A stretch of DNA of 22,779 nt from a virus: UHGV virus genome UHGV-0189340. One strand, given 5' to 3'. Positions within the stretch are counted from its first letter, which is position 1; every line of letters begins with the position of its first letter. Positions 13,840 through 22,779 of the stretch are shown one piece after another. Below the pieces are notes generated by a model, which saw only the letters and a list, made by a program, of their open reading frames with translations, searched no databases and was not told the DNA's origin. Position numbers and translations under genes: made by a program.

Positions 13840-14526
13840 TTATTGCTTATCTTGTGGTGGTGGAACCTCTTTTTCTAAATTATCTACATACTCTCTAATA
13901 TTGAATGCTTTGTTTTTCCTTATTTCGGTAGTGTTAACCTTACTAACACCATCACGAATGTTTTTATTTATGGTGTCTATTAATTTTTGTCTTTCTTGTT
14001 CTGTTTTTATTATTTCACTTAAGAATGACTTTGCGTTTCTTGAAATGTCCGTCTGTCTATTAATGAATAGTATCGCATACACTGAAAAAACCAAGCAAGT
14101 AGTCGTTAGTGCGGAATTAAAAAATACCCCATAATAAACATTAACTTTTGTTATTGACGCTGATAACGTTAGTGATATCAAAAAAAACAAAATCAGGGTA
14201 AAAATATATGCAATGGTTACTTTGTTTTTAGTGGTGTCAAGAATGTATGAAGTTCTTTGATCATCAAAGTAATCCTTTATCCTTGATGGAGTGTTTGCGG
14301 GGAGTTCTAACTCCTTTATTTTATCATCAGCATCAATTAGTCGCTTAAACATGAGGCTAATGATTACGGCGCTAAAGACAGAGATCCCCTTTGAAATTAT
14401 AGGATCGAAATCAATTAAAAATGAGTATTTTGAATAAACAAAAACAATAACAAAACCACATATAAGCCCAATTACAATTGAGCTTGCTATGTTTTTTGCA
14501 TATGTTTGTAACGTATTGTTTATCAT
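13840..14526 (-). CDS. Uncharacterised four-helix membrane protein; second gene of cargo operon, candidate membrane effector
   Basis: 228 aa, AT-rich. Four hydrophobic helices in a 2+2 arrangement (about residues 13-31, 47-60, 105-126, 132-155) and a charged C-terminal tail. Its ATG overlaps the upstream stop (ATGA). Confidence 0.75.
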   Translation of the reverse strand: MINNTLQTYAKNIASSIVIGLICGFVIVFVYSKYSFLIDFDPIISKGISVFSAVIISLMFKRLIDADDKIKELELPANTPSRIKDYFDDQRTSYILDTTKNKVTIAYIFTLILFFLISLTLSASITKVNVYYGVFFNSALTTTCLVFSVYAILFINRQTDISRNAKSFLSEIIKTEQERQKLIDTINKNIRDGVSKVNTTEIRKNKAFNIREYVDNLEKEVPPPQDKQ

Positions 14527-15506
14527 GGGTTAATTACTCCGGTGTCTAGTAAGCGCAATAACCATGAAATCATTTCTTCAGCAACGTTGTCAGCAATTAG
14601 CATTCCATTGCTGTATTCAATATTAACTGAATCCTTTAGTTGAATCTCATCATTCCTGAGTATTCCTGCACCTTTTAACTCAATTGTTAAGCTTTCATCT
14701 CTATTATCAACCAAGCCTTGTGTAATTTTACGCAACATGTCTTGCTCAGACTCGCTTGCTTTATATTTATACCCAATGGAAATATCAATTGATAGAGATT
14801 CCCTGTCAGGTGAACCATCATTTAAAATGGCATTTTTCTTCATTTCATTAATTCGATGTTCACCTACGAGCGTTTTTAATAGCTCACTAGCTGTATCATC
14901 AATATTATTTCCATAGTAGGTTAAAGGCAGCTTTAAGCTAACATTTTTTACTATGTTACGTTTTAAAAAATCCGTATTTAGAGACAGGTTGTTTGCCTGT
15001 AAAACGATGAAGTTATCATCAGTAATAGATAGGTTGTCTTGTAGTATGAAATTTATATAATTTTCAATATCTTTTATTCTAATAGATCTGCTTTGCAGAA
15101 TTATGAAGTGGTTCTTAATCACACCAATGTATGCAATGCTTTCTAAATACTCTCTAGCATTCCCACTTGATAAATTTAATGTCTCGTATGTTAAAGCTGT
15201 TTTAGCATAATCGCTAACAGAGAAAACAGGAATGCTACTACCCGGTTCAATATAGACAATTTCCGCAAAAAACATTCCATGAATTTCTTTGCTATTTGAA
15301 AGAACCATGTGGGCGTGAGCAGCGACATTACCATTATTATCTGGAACATCAGGGAAGAATAATCTATCAGCAACATTTGGAACCTTGATTTTCACAAGGT
15401 TTGCCAACCTATCTTGCAGGTTTGATGTTAAAAGAGCATCCTTTTTAGGAAGCATTATTGCATGGCGATAATGCAGCATTTTACTCTTATAATCTTGCGT
15501 TGCCAT
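14523..15506 (-). CDS. Uncharacterised soluble protein; first gene of cargo operon, candidate sensor or enzymatic partner
   Basis: 327 aa, AT-rich, Asn/Ile/Leu-rich. Good RBS (AGAGGGA, 5-nt spacer) before the ATG at 15506. No Walker A, HxH or other motif I recognise. Confidence 0.78.
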   Translation of the reverse strand: MATQDYKSKMLHYRHAIMLPKKDALLTSNLQDRLANLVKIKVPNVADRLFFPDVPDNNGNVAAHAHMVLSNSKEIHGMFFAEIVYIEPGSSIPVFSVSDYAKTALTYETLNLSSGNAREYLESIAYIGVIKNHFIILQSRSIRIKDIENYINFILQDNLSITDDNFIVLQANNLSLNTDFLKRNIVKNVSLKLPLTYYGNNIDDTASELLKTLVGEHRINEMKKNAILNDGSPDRESLSIDISIGYKYKASESEQDMLRKITQGLVDNRDESLTIELKGAGILRNDEIQLKDSVNIEYSNGMLIADNVAEEMISWLLRLLDTGVINP

Positions 15507-15577: not shown

Positions 15578-15596
15578 ATGCTATCCCCGCCACGCC
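15578..15596 (-). other. cos site (19-nt cohesive end) of P2/186 type
   Basis: Minus strand reads GGCGTGGCGGGGATAGCAT followed by TGCGCGC. Recalled P2 left end is GGCGAGGCGGGGAAAGCAC-TGCGCGC and 186 cos is GGCGTGGCGGGGAAAGCAT (18/19 match). Confidence 0.8.
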
Positions 15597-15877
15597 TGCC
15601 CGCTTTATGGGGCGGTTTTAATGCAGTTGCATGACCACTCTGGATACGCGCCAGCTGTGGCGGCACACGGCTAGAACGTGCAACCCATGTCGCATGCAAA
15701 ATCATGCGCCTGATGCATGCACAGCTAAAAAACGGGAAATTCGTGGAAAAATGGCATAAAAAACGACTTTGAAAGTGCCGGCCATGGTCAGATTTTCAAG
15801 GGCAGGCTAACGCCTCGCGCGGCTCGTTGTTCAAACCCGCTGACGCCAAAATCTAGTTTTTGCATCAGCGCGTTTAC

Positions 15878-16060
15878 CTATTCAGCCTTATAGAAAATTT
15901 CGTCTTTTTCTTCGTCGCTTTCGCTGTTAGCTAGGCCGGCAATCAGAGTTAGTGCCAGCTTCAAATCTGCCGGTTTGCAGTTGGCAATAAGAGATATCTC
16001 GGCGATAAATTGCACACAAGCCCACTTTTGCTGCGTTCGGCTGAAATGTTTCCCAACCAT
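15878..16060 (-). CDS. Small acidic protein under a LexA box; possible SOS-inducible antirepressor (Tum-like role)
   Basis: 60-aa ORF with a strong RBS (GGGAGGG, about 6-nt spacer) and a LexA box about 20 bp upstream. Lies between A and cos, where 186 carries the LexA-controlled tum operon. No sequence homology to Tum is claimed. Confidence 0.5.
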   Translation of the reverse strand: MVGKHFSRTQQKWACVQFIAEISLIANCKPADLKLALTLIAGLANSESDEEKDEIFYKAE

Positions 16061-16080
16061 GAAATCCCTCCCAATAGGAT

Positions 16081-16100
16081 TACTGTGTATTTATACAGTA
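16081..16100. promoter_or_regulatory. LexA (SOS) box overlapping a promoter
   Basis: TACTGTGTATTTATACAGTA fits the CTGT-N8-ACAG consensus with an AT-rich spacer. The minus-strand context has a TTGCCA -35-like hexamer and TATAAA inside the box. Confidence 0.7.
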
Positions 16101-16249
16101 TAACGTATTGGCAAAAGATGGGAAGAGAAAAAGTGAATCGGGTAGGTGTTGTATGTACATGATATGGATGTAAATTAATCACCTGTGAGTTTTGATGTTT
16201 CTGCCAGCACCGCAACACGATTAAGGATTTCCCTAGGCTTTGCCTGAAG

Positions 16250-18403
16250 CTATGGCGCTGCGGAGAAAATTTCACCTTTGGACGTTCCACGCAACCATTT
16301 ACCGTTAATACAACTTTTGCCACCTGCTATCAGGTGCAGGGCTTCTCCCCGGCTGATGGTAATGCCGGTTGTCAGACGGATCTCGTCGATAGTTTTTTCT
16401 ATCGGAGCACTTTGCTCATCTGTTCCGTGGATAAATTTCGGCCTCTTAGGTGGCTTTGGTTTCCTGATTCGGTTCGTCAGCTCTCGCCTTTCACGTCGAC
16501 TCAGGGGTTTTGATAAATCGAGTTCCGGTGGATCGCTTTCGCTTCCCGTACAGTTATTGACAGAACTCGAACTCCAAGGGACGGCGAAGCCGTCCTTAAC
16601 GTCAAAGGCCAAATCAACGGCACGCTTCGGAACAATTTTCCATTGCGTGAGCCGGGTTAAAATCGGAGTGCCAACACCAACGGTGGAGTCGTACACACCA
16701 CGAATGCAGACAGTTTCCTCACCATACTGGTTAAACTCGGTGCGCGGTTCATAAAGCGTACGCACCTGCAAATCATCGCGACGGACAAACGGACCGCCCT
16801 GCGCATTAACATAGCCAGCCCAATCACCGGCATCGGCGGCATCATGGACAGCCGCAAACTCAACACTTAGACCGTGCGCGGTCTCGGTATCTGCAAGGCG
16901 ACGCAATTCACGATAAACAGTCACTGGTGCACCACCGATAAACTGAAACTGACGAATATGCCAGCGCGCCGCCCATGCTGAAACGGCGGGGGCTGTCTCT
17001 TTCAACAGTTCACCGTTTTCGTCATCGGTTTCGTCATCAAGAGCGTAACCGTCGATATTTTTCGAGATGTATTTCGCGACGTAGCCGGTTGCGCTGCCTT
17101 TCTCCGGATCAATGGCTTCTGCGTGGAAACGTGCTTTTTTGGCTTTATCGCTTTTGAGTTCGTGAAAATCTTCTTGCCATGCGTAGTCCCGAATAATGCC
17201 ACGAACGGTATCGACGTCCTCCGGGAGCATAAACATCAGCATATGCCAGTGAGGGCACCCGTCATGGTGAGGCTCTGCAACGCGGATCCCGAAAATACGA
17301 ATGTCTTCACGGTGGAGTTTTGCGCGAATGCGTGCCCACAGGCCAGTGAGATAACATTGCGTATCGGATGGATTGGATCCATTCCATTTGGTGTTACGGT
17401 AGCCTGCCTTTGTCGTGGCGTGATATTTAGACGGTGCGGTCAGGGTGTAAAACTCACCAACATAACCGAGCTCATTGCAGATATTTTCAAACCCACGAAT
17501 GCGGGTCATAAGCTCACAGCGTCGAATCGCAGAGTTAGCGACTGAACCATCGTATTTTTCAATCAGGCTGATACGGTTGCCGTCTTCGTCTTCAAGCTCC
17601 AGACCTTTGAGAAATTCGCGCGTCCGGCGCTTCTGTTCACGCCAGTCTGTCACGCAGTTTTTACTCGCGTAGACATGTTTTTTCTTACTGACATTTCCGA
17701 TTGCGATTTGCAGGTGTTCGCGCCACGCAGCCGCAACGCGACGCAGACGGCCACGCCACCATTTTTCCGAAAACATACGGGCAATTGCTGGAGCGACTTT
17801 ATCCTGATCCCAATATTTATCCCGCGACCGTTCCCACTCTGGTGGCATTATCCTGAATTGCTGAGTGATGAAACCAGCATGCATATACCAGGCATTTAAT
17901 GTCTCCAGTTCACACATGTCAGAATCGTCAATGTTGACTAACTCTGCACGGATAAAATCGGCGATATCAGCAGCCAGCAGGTCGATGTCGGCGCGTGCCA
18001 TATCCGGGAGTCGGTTGTATCTGGCGACTATGTTGACCATGCGAGACGCCAGATATTGCATAAGCTGAGTATCGAAATGACAACCGAAAACAGCGGCTGA
18101 TACGTTGCTGTTAATACCGGTACACTCGTATTTTTTTGCGACCAGTTCAAAACGCGGCAATGCCTTTTTGCAGAAGCTTATTAAAAAAGCATTGGCTCGT
18201 TGACTGCCCTGATTTTGCTCCAGCACCGCAGCAGTGCGATAAACGTCAAAACGTACACACTCGGGCTGGAGGGAAAGCACCTTTCTAGCATGCAGCAAAG
18301 CCGCGAGCATACGGTCGCGGCGATACTGTTGGTCGTAGGTAAGATATGGACTGGCTATTGCCGACCGTGGAGCATTCCACGGAAACGCGAATTGAACAGC
18401 CAA
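16250..18403 (-). CDS. A: Replication initiation endonuclease, P2 gpA-like (rolling-circle initiator)
   Basis: 717-aa ORF (P2 gpA 761 aa) at the distal end of the early operon, before the cos-proximal region; a P2-type ori would be expected inside its 3' part. Confidence 0.88.
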   Translation of the reverse strand: MAVQFAFPWNAPRSAIASPYLTYDQQYRRDRMLAALLHARKVLSLQPECVRFDVYRTAAVLEQNQGSQRANAFLISFCKKALPRFELVAKKYECTGINSNVSAAVFGCHFDTQLMQYLASRMVNIVARYNRLPDMARADIDLLAADIADFIRAELVNIDDSDMCELETLNAWYMHAGFITQQFRIMPPEWERSRDKYWDQDKVAPAIARMFSEKWWRGRLRRVAAAWREHLQIAIGNVSKKKHVYASKNCVTDWREQKRRTREFLKGLELEDEDGNRISLIEKYDGSVANSAIRRCELMTRIRGFENICNELGYVGEFYTLTAPSKYHATTKAGYRNTKWNGSNPSDTQCYLTGLWARIRAKLHREDIRIFGIRVAEPHHDGCPHWHMLMFMLPEDVDTVRGIIRDYAWQEDFHELKSDKAKKARFHAEAIDPEKGSATGYVAKYISKNIDGYALDDETDDENGELLKETAPAVSAWAARWHIRQFQFIGGAPVTVYRELRRLADTETAHGLSVEFAAVHDAADAGDWAGYVNAQGGPFVRRDDLQVRTLYEPRTEFNQYGEETVCIRGVYDSTVGVGTPILTRLTQWKIVPKRAVDLAFDVKDGFAVPWSSSSVNNCTGSESDPPELDLSKPLSRRERRELTNRIRKPKPPKRPKFIHGTDEQSAPIEKTIDEIRLTTGITISRGEALHLIAGGKSCINGKWLRGTSKGEIFSAAP

Positions 18404-20239: not shown

Positions 20240-20818
20240 ATGAGATTGGATGAGTTAGAGGGTGGAAAAGCAGTGCTGCAGCGCATCCTTGATGCGTATG
20301 GCTTCACCATGCAAAAACAACTCGGTGACTTGCATGAGCTGTCATCGGGAACAATCAGCACTTGGGTTCGGCGTAATTTTTTCCCCGGGGATGTTGTTGT
20401 TGCATGCGCTTTGGACACTGGGGTGTCTTTACGTTGGTTGGCAACAGGGAAGGGGAACAAGTTTGATGCAGACCATACTAATGGCGAAATGAAAACATTA
20501 GACCGATTGGATATTGTTGCAGGTAAGCTGCAGGAAAACGGTCATTGGATTGTTGATGCTAACCTCTTTTCTACTGAGGCGACGCACCCCAATTACATAG
20601 TAAAAGGCCAGCAGTCTTGGATAGTTGATTTTGATATGACTGATATAGCAAATGGGCGATGGATGCTCAGTATCGACGGGGATCATGATGTCTATGACGT
20701 TGCAAGGATCCCGGGGAACAGAATAAAAGTCAGCAACGCTGATGCCGATTTTCAATGCTCAGTTTCTGAGGTTAAGTGTATTGGCATGGTGCTGGTAAGC
20801 CTGACGAAATCTAGCTAA
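20240..20818 (+). CDS. cI: Immunity repressor, phage 186 CI-like
   Basis: Start at MRLDELEGG gives 192 aa, the length of 186 CI. Directly upstream of int on the same strand (cI-int operon as in 186). No obvious S24 Ser/Lys autocleavage motifs. Confidence 0.8.
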   Translation: MRLDELEGGKAVLQRILDAYGFTMQKQLGDLHELSSGTISTWVRRNFFPGDVVVACALDTGVSLRWLATGKGNKFDADHTNGEMKTLDRLDIVAGKLQENGHWIVDANLFSTEATHPNYIVKGQQSWIVDFDMTDIANGRWMLSIDGDHDVYDVARIPGNRIKVSNADADFQCSVSEVKCIGMVLVSLTKSS

Positions 20819-20822
20819 CGAT

Positions 20823-21860
20823 ATGAGTGTTAAAAAACTGACATCGGGTGAATGGCTTTGTGATTTCCGCGTCGACGGGGCTGAAAGTCGCCGCGTGCGT
20901 AAGAAGTTTTCAACCAAAGGTGAAGCCGTTGCCTTCGAACAGTATTACCGAGAAGAGGCACAAAATAAGCCGTGGATGGGTGAGAAGGAAGACCGTCGAC
21001 GTTTGAGTGAACTGATTGAGCTGTGGCATAACCTCCATGGCCAGTCGCTCGCTGCCAGCAAATCGCGATTGGCCAAACTGCACATTGTTTGCCGGGGTCT
21101 TGGCGACCCAATCGCTACCCAGCTTACCGCCAAAGATTTCGCCCATTATCGGGATAAACGTCTCAAGGGTGAAATCGACAATGGCTATCACGCAAATTCT
21201 GAAAAGTGGATTGCGAAACCTGTGACTGTGAACCGGGAACAACAGTACCTCGAAGCTGTTTTCAATGAGCTGAAGCGCTTGGGTGAGTGGAGTCTGCCAA
21301 ATCCTCTCGAAGGTGTGCGAGTTTTCAAAGAAGCCGAAAAAGAAATGTCTTGGCTTACCCAGCCTCAAATTCGCGAAGTGCTCAATGCTTGTGAGTCATA
21401 CGGGAAAATTTATTTAACCCGTATCGTCAAAGTGTGCTTAGCGACTGGTGCTCGATGGAGCGAGGCCGAGCGTCTTACTCGTTCACAGCTTTCACCCCAC
21501 AAGTTGACTTTCACTAAAACGAAGGGAAAGAAGAATCGTACAGTACCGATCCCTCGGTGGCTATATGACGAGTTGGCTCCTTTACAGGGAAAAATGTTCC
21601 ACCCCTGCTATCAGGAGTTCAAGAAAATGCTCGCTCTGACCGATATAGAGTTAGCTGAAGGGCAAAAAACGCATGTGTTACGTCATACATTTGCGAGTCA
21701 CTTTATGATGAATGGTGGGAACATTTTAGTACTGCAACGAATCTTGGGCCATTCTAACATTAGGGAAACCATGAGATACGCTCATTTTGCACCAGATCAT
21801 TTAGAAGAAGCTGTAACTCTTAACCCTATTTCTAATTTAACAGGATTATATGATGAGTGA
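20823..21860 (+). CDS. int: Tyrosine integrase (P2/186 Int family)
   Basis: 345 aa; C-terminal catalytic region with conserved R...HxLRHT...R...Y pattern (HVLRHTFASHF...GHSNIRETMRYAH). Confidence 0.9.
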   Translation: MSVKKLTSGEWLCDFRVDGAESRRVRKKFSTKGEAVAFEQYYREEAQNKPWMGEKEDRRRLSELIELWHNLHGQSLAASKSRLAKLHIVCRGLGDPIATQLTAKDFAHYRDKRLKGEIDNGYHANSEKWIAKPVTVNREQQYLEAVFNELKRLGEWSLPNPLEGVRVFKEAEKEMSWLTQPQIREVLNACESYGKIYLTRIVKVCLATGARWSEAERLTRSQLSPHKLTFTKTKGKKNRTVPIPRWLYDELAPLQGKMFHPCYQEFKKMLALTDIELAEGQKTHVLRHTFASHFMMNGGNILVLQRILGHSNIRETMRYAHFAPDHLEEAVTLNPISNLTGLYDE

Positions 21861-22779
21861 GCCAACCATCGAAACACCTCCAAGAATGACCGAGGCCAAA
21901 GTCATTAGGGTACGCACTCGTGGTTTTTATAATTTAGTTGAGATAGGTGCAGTCTTTCTAGTTGCAAATGTAATTTTTGCTACAGGGATATTAGACTCAA
22001 CCTTTTATTATTTATTTCCCAGTGCGAGAGCAGATCTTACACATTTGCCGAGCTTTATCAGGTCAATATTCGCAGTGTCATTTGTAATCGTTTACACCAT
22101 TATCTATGGTGTGTCTCCAATCCAAAGAATGTTTATGAGAATTACAGGGAGTGATTCAGTCGACAAATCATCGATGTTTAATATTGTCGATATTATAAAT
22201 GAGATAAAACTACTCAAGAAGGCTCAAGAGGAAAGGGCTGCTGCTGATGAAGATGAATCTCTGGATTTTTATCTTAAAGGTTTGATTAATAGCTCTGAAG
22301 GTCTTGCGAAAAACATATATTCTCGCGGTAGTCTTTATTTATTAGTCGGTGTTTGTTTTGCAATAGTTGGATTAGGTTTCTTCTATTCTCAATCACATGT
22401 AATTGATGCTAAGGATGATGCGGTAACCAAGGTAATGTATCTTCTCCCTAATTTTGGCGTGTTGATTTTCTTGGAGTTAATCGCATTTTTCTTTTTGAAG
22501 CAATATCGGGTTACGATGGATGAGTTTCGCTATTACGAGGCAATAAAACGTTCACGTGAGGAAAGCTATGCCATTATAAAGCTTGTAATGGCTAGCCAGA
22601 AAGATATCGATATGATAGACCTTCTGGATAAAATTAATTTTAGCTCAAGAGTTGGAAAACTAGAATCAGGGCAGACTACTGAAATTATTGAAGCAAGAAA
22701 ATTAGACAAAAATGAACTTGAAACCTTAGTAAAGCTTACCGAGGCAGTTGCGGGTAAGATTGGACAGGGAAATAAGTAG
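21850..22779 (+). CDS. Uncharacterised four-helix membrane protein, translationally coupled to int
   Basis: 309 aa, AT-rich. ATG (21850 or 21853) overlaps the last int codons. Four hydrophobic helices in a 2+2 arrangement with a charged central loop and helical C-terminal tail. Stop codon is the last three bases of the window. Confidence 0.7.
   Translation: MMSEPTIETPPRMTEAKVIRVRTRGFYNLVEIGAVFLVANVIFATGILDSTFYYLFPSARADLTHLPSFIRSIFAVSFVIVYTIIYGVSPIQRMFMRITGSDSVDKSSMFNIVDIINEIKLLKKAQEERAAADEDESLDFYLKGLINSSEGLAKNIYSRGSLYLLVGVCFAIVGLGFFYSQSHVIDAKDDAVTKVMYLLPNFGVLIFLELIAFFFLKQYRVTMDEFRYYEAIKRSREESYAIIKLVMASQKDIDMIDLLDKINFSSRVGKLESGQTTEIIEARKLDKNELETLVKLTEAVAGKIGQGNK

Follow-up and report, generated by a model that had tools for sequence, protein, structure and literature searches.

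A probable LexA-controlled tumA induction module in a 186/PSP3-like prophage of Escherichia coli

The locus between replication gene A and cos in this DNA is very probably the SOS-induction module of a 186/PSP3-like prophage, in which a LexA-repressed promoter drives tumA, and the TumA protein in turn inactivates the CI repressor. The window, by which we mean the whole stretch of 22,779 nucleotides analyzed here, is a 186/PSP3-like (Eganvirus-type) prophage of E. coli. In silico, the locus combines a LexA box conserved at 34 loci, a promoter homologous to that of 186, an ortholog of PSP3 TumA under purifying selection, and a 186-type CI. LexA binding, SOS-dependent expression and an interaction between TumA and CI are expected by analogy with related phages. 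The type of module is already known from those phages as the split tum operon of PSP3 and Fels-2; here tumA occurs alone.

In coliphage 186, LexA represses the p95 promoter from which Tum is expressed, and Tum inactivates or sequesters CI (PMC7708051). A similar course of events can be proposed for the window. In an undamaged lysogen, host LexA would occupy the operator at 16081-16100 and, since the -10 element of a p95-type promoter shares bases with this operator, tumA would be silent. DNA damage would activate RecA and lead to self-cleavage of LexA. The promoter would then fire, with the strong Shine-Dalgarno sequence giving a burst of the 60-residue TumA. This protein, for which a two-helix hairpin with an acidic tail is predicted, would bind the non-cleavable CI in the manner of 186 Tum and PSP3 TumA, the antirepressor activity of the latter being documented only as a personal communication quoted in PMC3121763. 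CI bound by TumA would no longer bind its operators, and the early lytic promoter would be derepressed.

The LexA operator and its promoter

The predicted LexA operator (SOS box) lies at 16081-16100 and is assigned to neither strand; it reads TACTGTGTATTTATACAGTA on the plus strand and TACTGTATAAATACACAGTA on the minus strand, and differs from the 20-bp consensus TACTGTATATATATACAGTA at two positions. It is the sole site in the window with three or fewer mismatches to that consensus, and 100 shuffles gave none. A symmetrised position weight matrix, trained on an uncurated set of 21 E. coli LexA operators, scored the operator at 26.4 bits. The training sites themselves scored 13.3-27.0 bits, the consensus 30.2 bits, and the next best site in the window 8.7 bits. 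The heterology index of the operator, an approximate value, is 1.5, and the training sites range from 0.5 to 9.8. By its palindrome of the TACTGT-N8-ACAGTA type and by its score, the site fits the operators of the E. coli LexA regulon. The shorter pattern CTGT-N8-ACAG occurs twice in the window, where 0.19 copies are expected. The second copy (16993-17008) was discounted as an operator for its score of 8.7 bits, its heterology index above 13 and its place within gene A.

A sigma-70 consensus scan placed a p95-like promoter at 16095-16124 on the minus strand, with matches at 9 of 12 positions. Its -35 element is TTCCCA (16119-16124). The -10 element is either TATACT (16097-16102), which follows after a 16-nt spacer, or TACTGT (16095-16100), as homology to 186 would have it; both candidates overlap the LexA box. 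The region aligns base for base with the annotated -35, -10 and LexA site of 186 p95. In silico, then, this is a promoter whose -10 is covered by a LexA operator. The initial annotation, made from the sequence alone, had described a near-consensus LexA box overlapping promoter-like hexamers and had proposed matrix scoring as a check; the box, its score and the hexamers (TTCCCA-16 nt-TATACT, 16124 to 16097 on the minus strand) all bear it out. Downstream of the box, a GGGAGGG Shine-Dalgarno sequence was identified by inspection at 16066-16072 on the minus strand, 5 nt before the tumA ATG, and the ATG itself is 20 nt from the box. Scanned against Rfam, the entire window returned no match, so no known RNA accounts for the region.

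The LexA box recurs at the other tum and tumA loci compared. We compared 34 loci, consisting of 30 species-representative tumA loci together with PSP3, RCIP0057, 186 and the window. A CTGT-N8-ACAG box stands 17-23 nt before the start codon in all 34, with scores of 21-29 bits. In 22 of the 33 distinct sequences, TTC[ACG]CA precedes the box by exactly 18 nt, and GGAGG-type sequences occupy the equivalent position in related loci. Information content is close to nil in the spacer and in the more distal sequence, and the flanking DNA diverges among loci. A conserved -35 element, operator and Shine-Dalgarno sequence joined by freely varying spacers is the pattern expected of a LexA-repressed promoter under selection.

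TumA and its family

The gene controlled by this promoter, tumA (15878-16060 including the stop codon, minus strand), is predicted to encode a 60-residue antirepressor. The initial annotation had noted a minus-strand ORF of this length 20 nt from the box, behind a GGGAGGG ribosome binding site and next to cos, and had read it as an SOS-controlled small antirepressor following the logic of 186 Tum. The ORF is present as described, a 186-type cos lies 282 nt downstream of its stop codon, and homology, synteny and conservation favor the proposed role. By megablast against phage records, the region aligns with PSP3, SEN1, SW9, SI22 and Klebsiella phage RCIP0057. With PSP3 TumA, the window protein shares 83% identity along its full length of 60 residues. 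The PSP3 record annotates tumA as 'similar to 5' end 186 tum; UV induction of prophage' and the following gene, tumB, as 'similar to dinI and 3' end of 186 tum'.

The relationship to 186 Tum is more distant. The window ORF matches phrog_1993 with an E value of 3e-28, and residues 1-61 of 186 Tum match the same family with an E value of 1e-22. Direct BLASTP of the ORF against the 146-residue 186 Tum gave no alignment, and hhalign of a 24-sequence TumA profile aligned it with Tum residues 13-45 at an E value of 1.5e-4 and a probability of 52%, so homology to 186 Tum rests on the profile matches and on synteny. With these relationships, the ORF belongs to the family of TumA and the 186 Tum N-terminal region. 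An earlier suggestion that it might be a distinct small antirepressor does not hold, given its orthology to PSP3 TumA and the family it shares with the Tum N-terminus. The accompanying remark that it is much shorter than 186 Tum was correct: the N-terminal module of Tum stands alone here, which explains the short length.

Position supports the assignment as well. The gene lies between replication gene A and cos, on the strand of A, in a phage of the 186 type. The order A - tumA - cos is common to PSP3, RCIP0057, 186 and two other loci (L039 and L041). An overlapping 120-residue ORF (15961-16323), which extends across both the promoter and the LexA box, was for that reason set aside as spurious.

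Relatives of TumA are widespread. The family comprises 112 clusters at 90% identity across Enterobacterales, 71 of them exactly 60 residues long and most others 56-63. An exhaustive profile search of 1.8 billion cluster representatives recovered 33 relatives, all but two of them stand-alone proteins, with lengths of 33-87 residues. Among the sequences gathered here, the stand-alone form is thus the usual state of the family, and the fused Tum of 186 is the exception. Against eleven orthologs, wherever dS was not saturated, dN/dS was 0.07-0.15, the mark of a real gene under strong purifying selection. A core, CVQFIAE.SL.ANCKP..L.LA...IA.L, is invariant from Escherichia to Pantoea and Erwinia.

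An AlphaFold2 model (mean pLDDT 74) predicts a helical hairpin, with a helix at residues 8-25, a turn formed by the family-invariant NCKP, a second helix at residues 30-48 and a disordered acidic tail. When the model was compared with BFVD by Foldseek, only helical hairpins came up, none of them significant, as is to be expected for a two-helix protein of 60 residues, and a PDB profile search found no relative of solved structure. Searches of Pfam, NCBIfam and PADLOC assigned the ORF to no family. RefSeq labels the gene 'hypothetical protein', and PHROGs labels the family 'unknown function'. Recognizing tumA as the gene that probably triggers induction in a group of 186-like prophages widespread among Enterobacterales would therefore improve its annotation. 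TumA and its LexA box could also mark which P2-like prophages are SOS-inducible, and recognizing such prophages bears on phage-mediated gene transfer after antibiotic treatment.

Two changes in this lineage and the CI repressor

Two changes in the window call for caution. Codon 42 of tumA (15935-15937) encodes Gly, at a position where Asp is otherwise nearly invariant. The motif around this residue was readable in 113 of 139 family proteins; 107 have Asp, four have Glu, and Gly occurs only in the two clusters of this lineage. The G42 protein could be weakened or retuned. The second change is in the 3' end of gene A (16175-16252, minus strand), where an in-frame TAG (16250-16252) removes the last 25 codons. 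The frame beyond the TAG still encodes ILNRVAV, a stretch conserved in the A proteins of E. coli E21 and PSP3; this is a sign that the mutation is recent. With this stop codon in gene A, induction may yield no phage.

These changes raise the question of whether the module is a decaying relic, with either TumA (through G42) or the whole prophage (through the nonsense codon in gene A) no longer functional and no productive induction possible. The uniqueness of Gly at a near-invariant acidic position would fit such decay, as would the annotation by PGAP of gene A in E. coli FORC 064 as a pseudogene ('internal stop'). The distribution of the locus fits too. Among 5,426 complete E. coli genomes, the 1-kb locus is found at 100% identity in 12 and at 99.9% in a thirteenth, consistent with vertical or clonal persistence. 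However, the LexA box, -35 element, Shine-Dalgarno sequence and ORF are all intact, and residues 1-48 of the window TumA differ from the family consensus at only three positions. The truncation of A is small, 25 of about 742 residues, and falls within a C-terminal tail that differs from phage to phage. The diverse origins of the 13 carrier strains suggest that the element is still mobile. We consider decay to be decidedly improbable, and prefer to read the locus as a working SOS-induction module.

For such a module, the presumed target of TumA is the immunity repressor. The window encodes a 186-type CI (20240-20818, plus strand; 192 residues from the start MRLDELEGG) with matches to PF07022 and PF16452. 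It is colinear with 186 CI at 28% identity over 192 residues and has no match to the S24 peptidase domain responsible for autocleavage. The cognate repressor is accordingly of the 186 type and free of a RecA-dependent autocleavage domain, in keeping with the initial annotation, which had called it 186 CI-like in length and without obvious autocleavage motifs. Its closest relatives among phage CI proteins are those of SI22 (50.5% identity) and RCIP0057 (49.2%). The TumA of RCIP0057 is identical to that of PSP3.

The CI proteins of several TumA-bearing relatives differ in build. In phage SI22 (locus L037) and in two further loci (L040 and L041), CI is 281-295 residues long and contains two tandem Phage_CI_repr (HTH) domains, compared with a single such domain in the window and 186 proteins. 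L040, a Pluralibacter metagenome contig, is unusual in other respects. Its tumA and LexA box follow gene A and are themselves followed by tail X, holin, lysozyme and baseplate genes; the contig has no cos, portal or terminase genes, and no integrase was seen beside its CI. It may be a rearranged or tailocin-like derivative that has kept the SOS trigger.

Across these loci, TumA and CI have diverged to very different degrees. Between Pantoea and the window, TumA is 69% identical, the N-terminal domain of CI 37% and its C-terminal domain 25%. At this level of comparison TumA is far more conserved than either domain of CI, which simple co-evolution with CI would not predict. The idea that TumA conservation tracks the N-terminal domain of CI was rejected; SI22 and Pluralibacter, with N-terminal domains about 84% identical, fit it, and Pantoea (TumA 69%, N-terminal domain 37%) does not.

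An invariant TumA core from Escherichia to Pantoea and Erwinia, set against CI identities that fall to 25-37%, could be taken to mean that TumA acts on a conserved partner other than CI, such as a host protein, Apl or CII, and has a function other than or besides antirepression. We regard this as highly unlikely. A 186-type CI is present at every tumA locus examined with enough flanking sequence. In addition, the N-terminal domain of CI retains a CAL(D/E)TG..L.WL.TG.G motif, which could serve as a common docking site.

If antirepression is the role of TumA, an invariant core facing CI proteins that have diverged to 25-50% identity could mean that TumA is a near-universal antirepressor. Should it dock on a conserved surface of CI, SOS induction of one prophage could also set off other 186-type prophages resident in the same cell, although their immunity differs. 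The DinI-like partner found in other phages would then be a dispensable add-on.

The absent DinI-like partner and the surrounding prophage

The window has the SOS module in a minimal form, as tumB, the DinI-like partner, is missing. In alignments with RCIP0057 and PSP3, the sequence found 3' of tumB in those phages begins immediately after the tumA stop codon of the window, so that tumB is cleanly absent, a difference of 234 bp relative to PSP3. The window therefore contains neither a DinI-like C-terminal domain nor an adjacent tumB, and does not have the full bipartite structure of 186 Tum. This condition is common, as tumB is missing from 20 of the 30 species-level loci. Two loci without it (L013 and L017) share the layout and the tumA - cos spacing of the window, with tumA, a cos at +276 and then an ORF on the same strand. 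Of 5,426 complete E. coli genomes, 81 carry a TumA-type gene; 37 of the 81 have a PSP3-type tumB, 13 are of the window type, and others have a different DinI-like gene.

That the ORF is itself a DinI-like modulator of RecA filaments with no antirepressor activity, a possibility that the initial annotation had raised, is extremely improbable: DinI-like sequence does occur within the same LexA-controlled operon in 186, PSP3, Fels-2 and many E. coli prophages, but the ORF lies outside the DinI family (NF007893, PF06183, phrog_189), having no DinI match in NCBIfam or PHROGs, unlike the controls, 186 Tum residues 72-142 and PSP3 TumB; tblastn of three DinI-like queries against the whole window found nothing significant; and in alignment the ORF corresponds to TumA, whose gene precedes the DinI-like one.

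There are several known systems with which the proposed antirepressor module can be compared. The first is PSP3 (AY135486; also Fels-2). Its tumA likewise directly follows gene A and precedes cos, its LexA box differs by one base, and its -35 element and Shine-Dalgarno sequence are the same as those of the window. PSP3 differs in having a DinI-like tumB 4 nt after tumA and in having D42 in TumA. The second is coliphage 186, which resembles the window in regulatory logic, in its homologous promoter and LexA site, in the architecture of CI, in the position of the operon between A and cos, and in the PHROG family of the Tum N-terminal region. Its Tum, however, is a 146-residue fusion of an antirepressor module with a DinI-like domain, followed by orf97, whereas the window has the 60-residue module alone, no orf97, and a similarity too low for BLASTP.

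The third is the DuoHS prophage of E. coli HS, a P2-like prophage in which deletion of 'tum' or a lexA(Ind-) mutation abolishes induction by mitomycin C (PMC12055606). We located this tum as ECHS_RS04495, a 62-residue ORF between gpA and a DinI-like gene. Since its deletion abolishes induction, a stand-alone small gene of the Tum N-terminal type is required as the SOS trigger in DuoHS. Like the window, DuoHS has a stand-alone ORF of about 60 residues between gpA and cos, with LexA-box-like sequences upstream. The two differ in that ECHS_RS04495 belongs to a sister family, phrog_698, and matches phrog_1993 weakly (E 0.002), that its hhalign comparison with the TumA profile is not significant, and that a DinI-like gene follows it. 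Finally, GfoA and GftA of the Gifsy phages and AntC of N15 are small SOS-induced, LexA-controlled antirepressors that inactivate a non-cleavable repressor (PMC3121763). Their likeness to the window is one of functional scheme; they differ in phage type, repressor family and operon order.

The wider gene content of the window is that of a 186-type phage. The neighbors of the module include replication gene A (Phage_GPA), a TraR/DksA zinc-finger protein, CII (CP76), an ORF of the size of Apl, and Int. Synteny is as expected, with the order A - tumA - cos and 186-type CI, CII, Apl and Int. The prophage of E. coli FORC 064 adjoins yfiB/dgcN.

Downstream of tumA, the cohesive-end sequence GGCGTGGCGGGGATAGCAT lies at 15578-15596 on the minus strand, identified by its match to the left end of 186 and to the annotated cos; over a 31-nt stretch, 30 positions agree with the 186 left end. 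Directly 3' of the tumA stop codon, a centroid fold gave a hairpin (CGCUGAUGC...GCGUCAGCG, 15838-15870, minus strand). The hairpin is kept in 186 and RCIP0057 with compensatory base changes and is followed by no U-tract; it may be a terminator or a cos-flanking element. Within 15597-15880, the stem of the 186 terminator t95b (ACCGG...CCGGT and then a T-run) is degenerate in the window.

Between cos and the end of the portal gene, there is a two-gene operon (13840-15506, minus strand) with the appearance of cargo. Its ORFs, at 14523-15506 (327 residues) and 13840-14526 (228 residues), are AT-rich, with a GC content of 0.31-0.36 compared with 0.50-0.57 for the backbone. The region between gpA and gpQ is a defense hotspot of P2-like phages (PMC9122126), and the pair sits within it. 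The 327-residue protein matched only phrog_3482, a family of unknown function, and 17 clusters of hypothetical proteins, whose hosts are E. coli, Aeromonas, Vibrio and Enterobacter. The 228-residue protein resembles a multi-pass membrane protein. The pair had no match in PADLOC or PDB and no Pfam match above threshold. It is a candidate for an uncharacterized defense or abortive-infection system.

These cargo genes share the strand of tumA and are contiguous with it in the integrated prophage. A LexA-controlled transcript that passes through the degenerate t95b and cos into 13840-15506 is conceivable, and would make the candidate defense or abortive-infection pair SOS-inducible. Taken jointly, such read-through or the near-universal antirepression and cross-induction discussed above is a speculation that we think unlikely.

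A further AT-rich gene lies at the other side of the prophage. An ORF of 309 residues (21850-22779, plus strand; GC about 0.36) shares 11 nt with the end of int and is located between int and the host yfiB/dgcN side. Its sole match was to phrog_5157, of unknown function, and transmembrane segments are apparent in the protein. The ORF has the appearance of a second cargo gene, this one at the att-proximal end.
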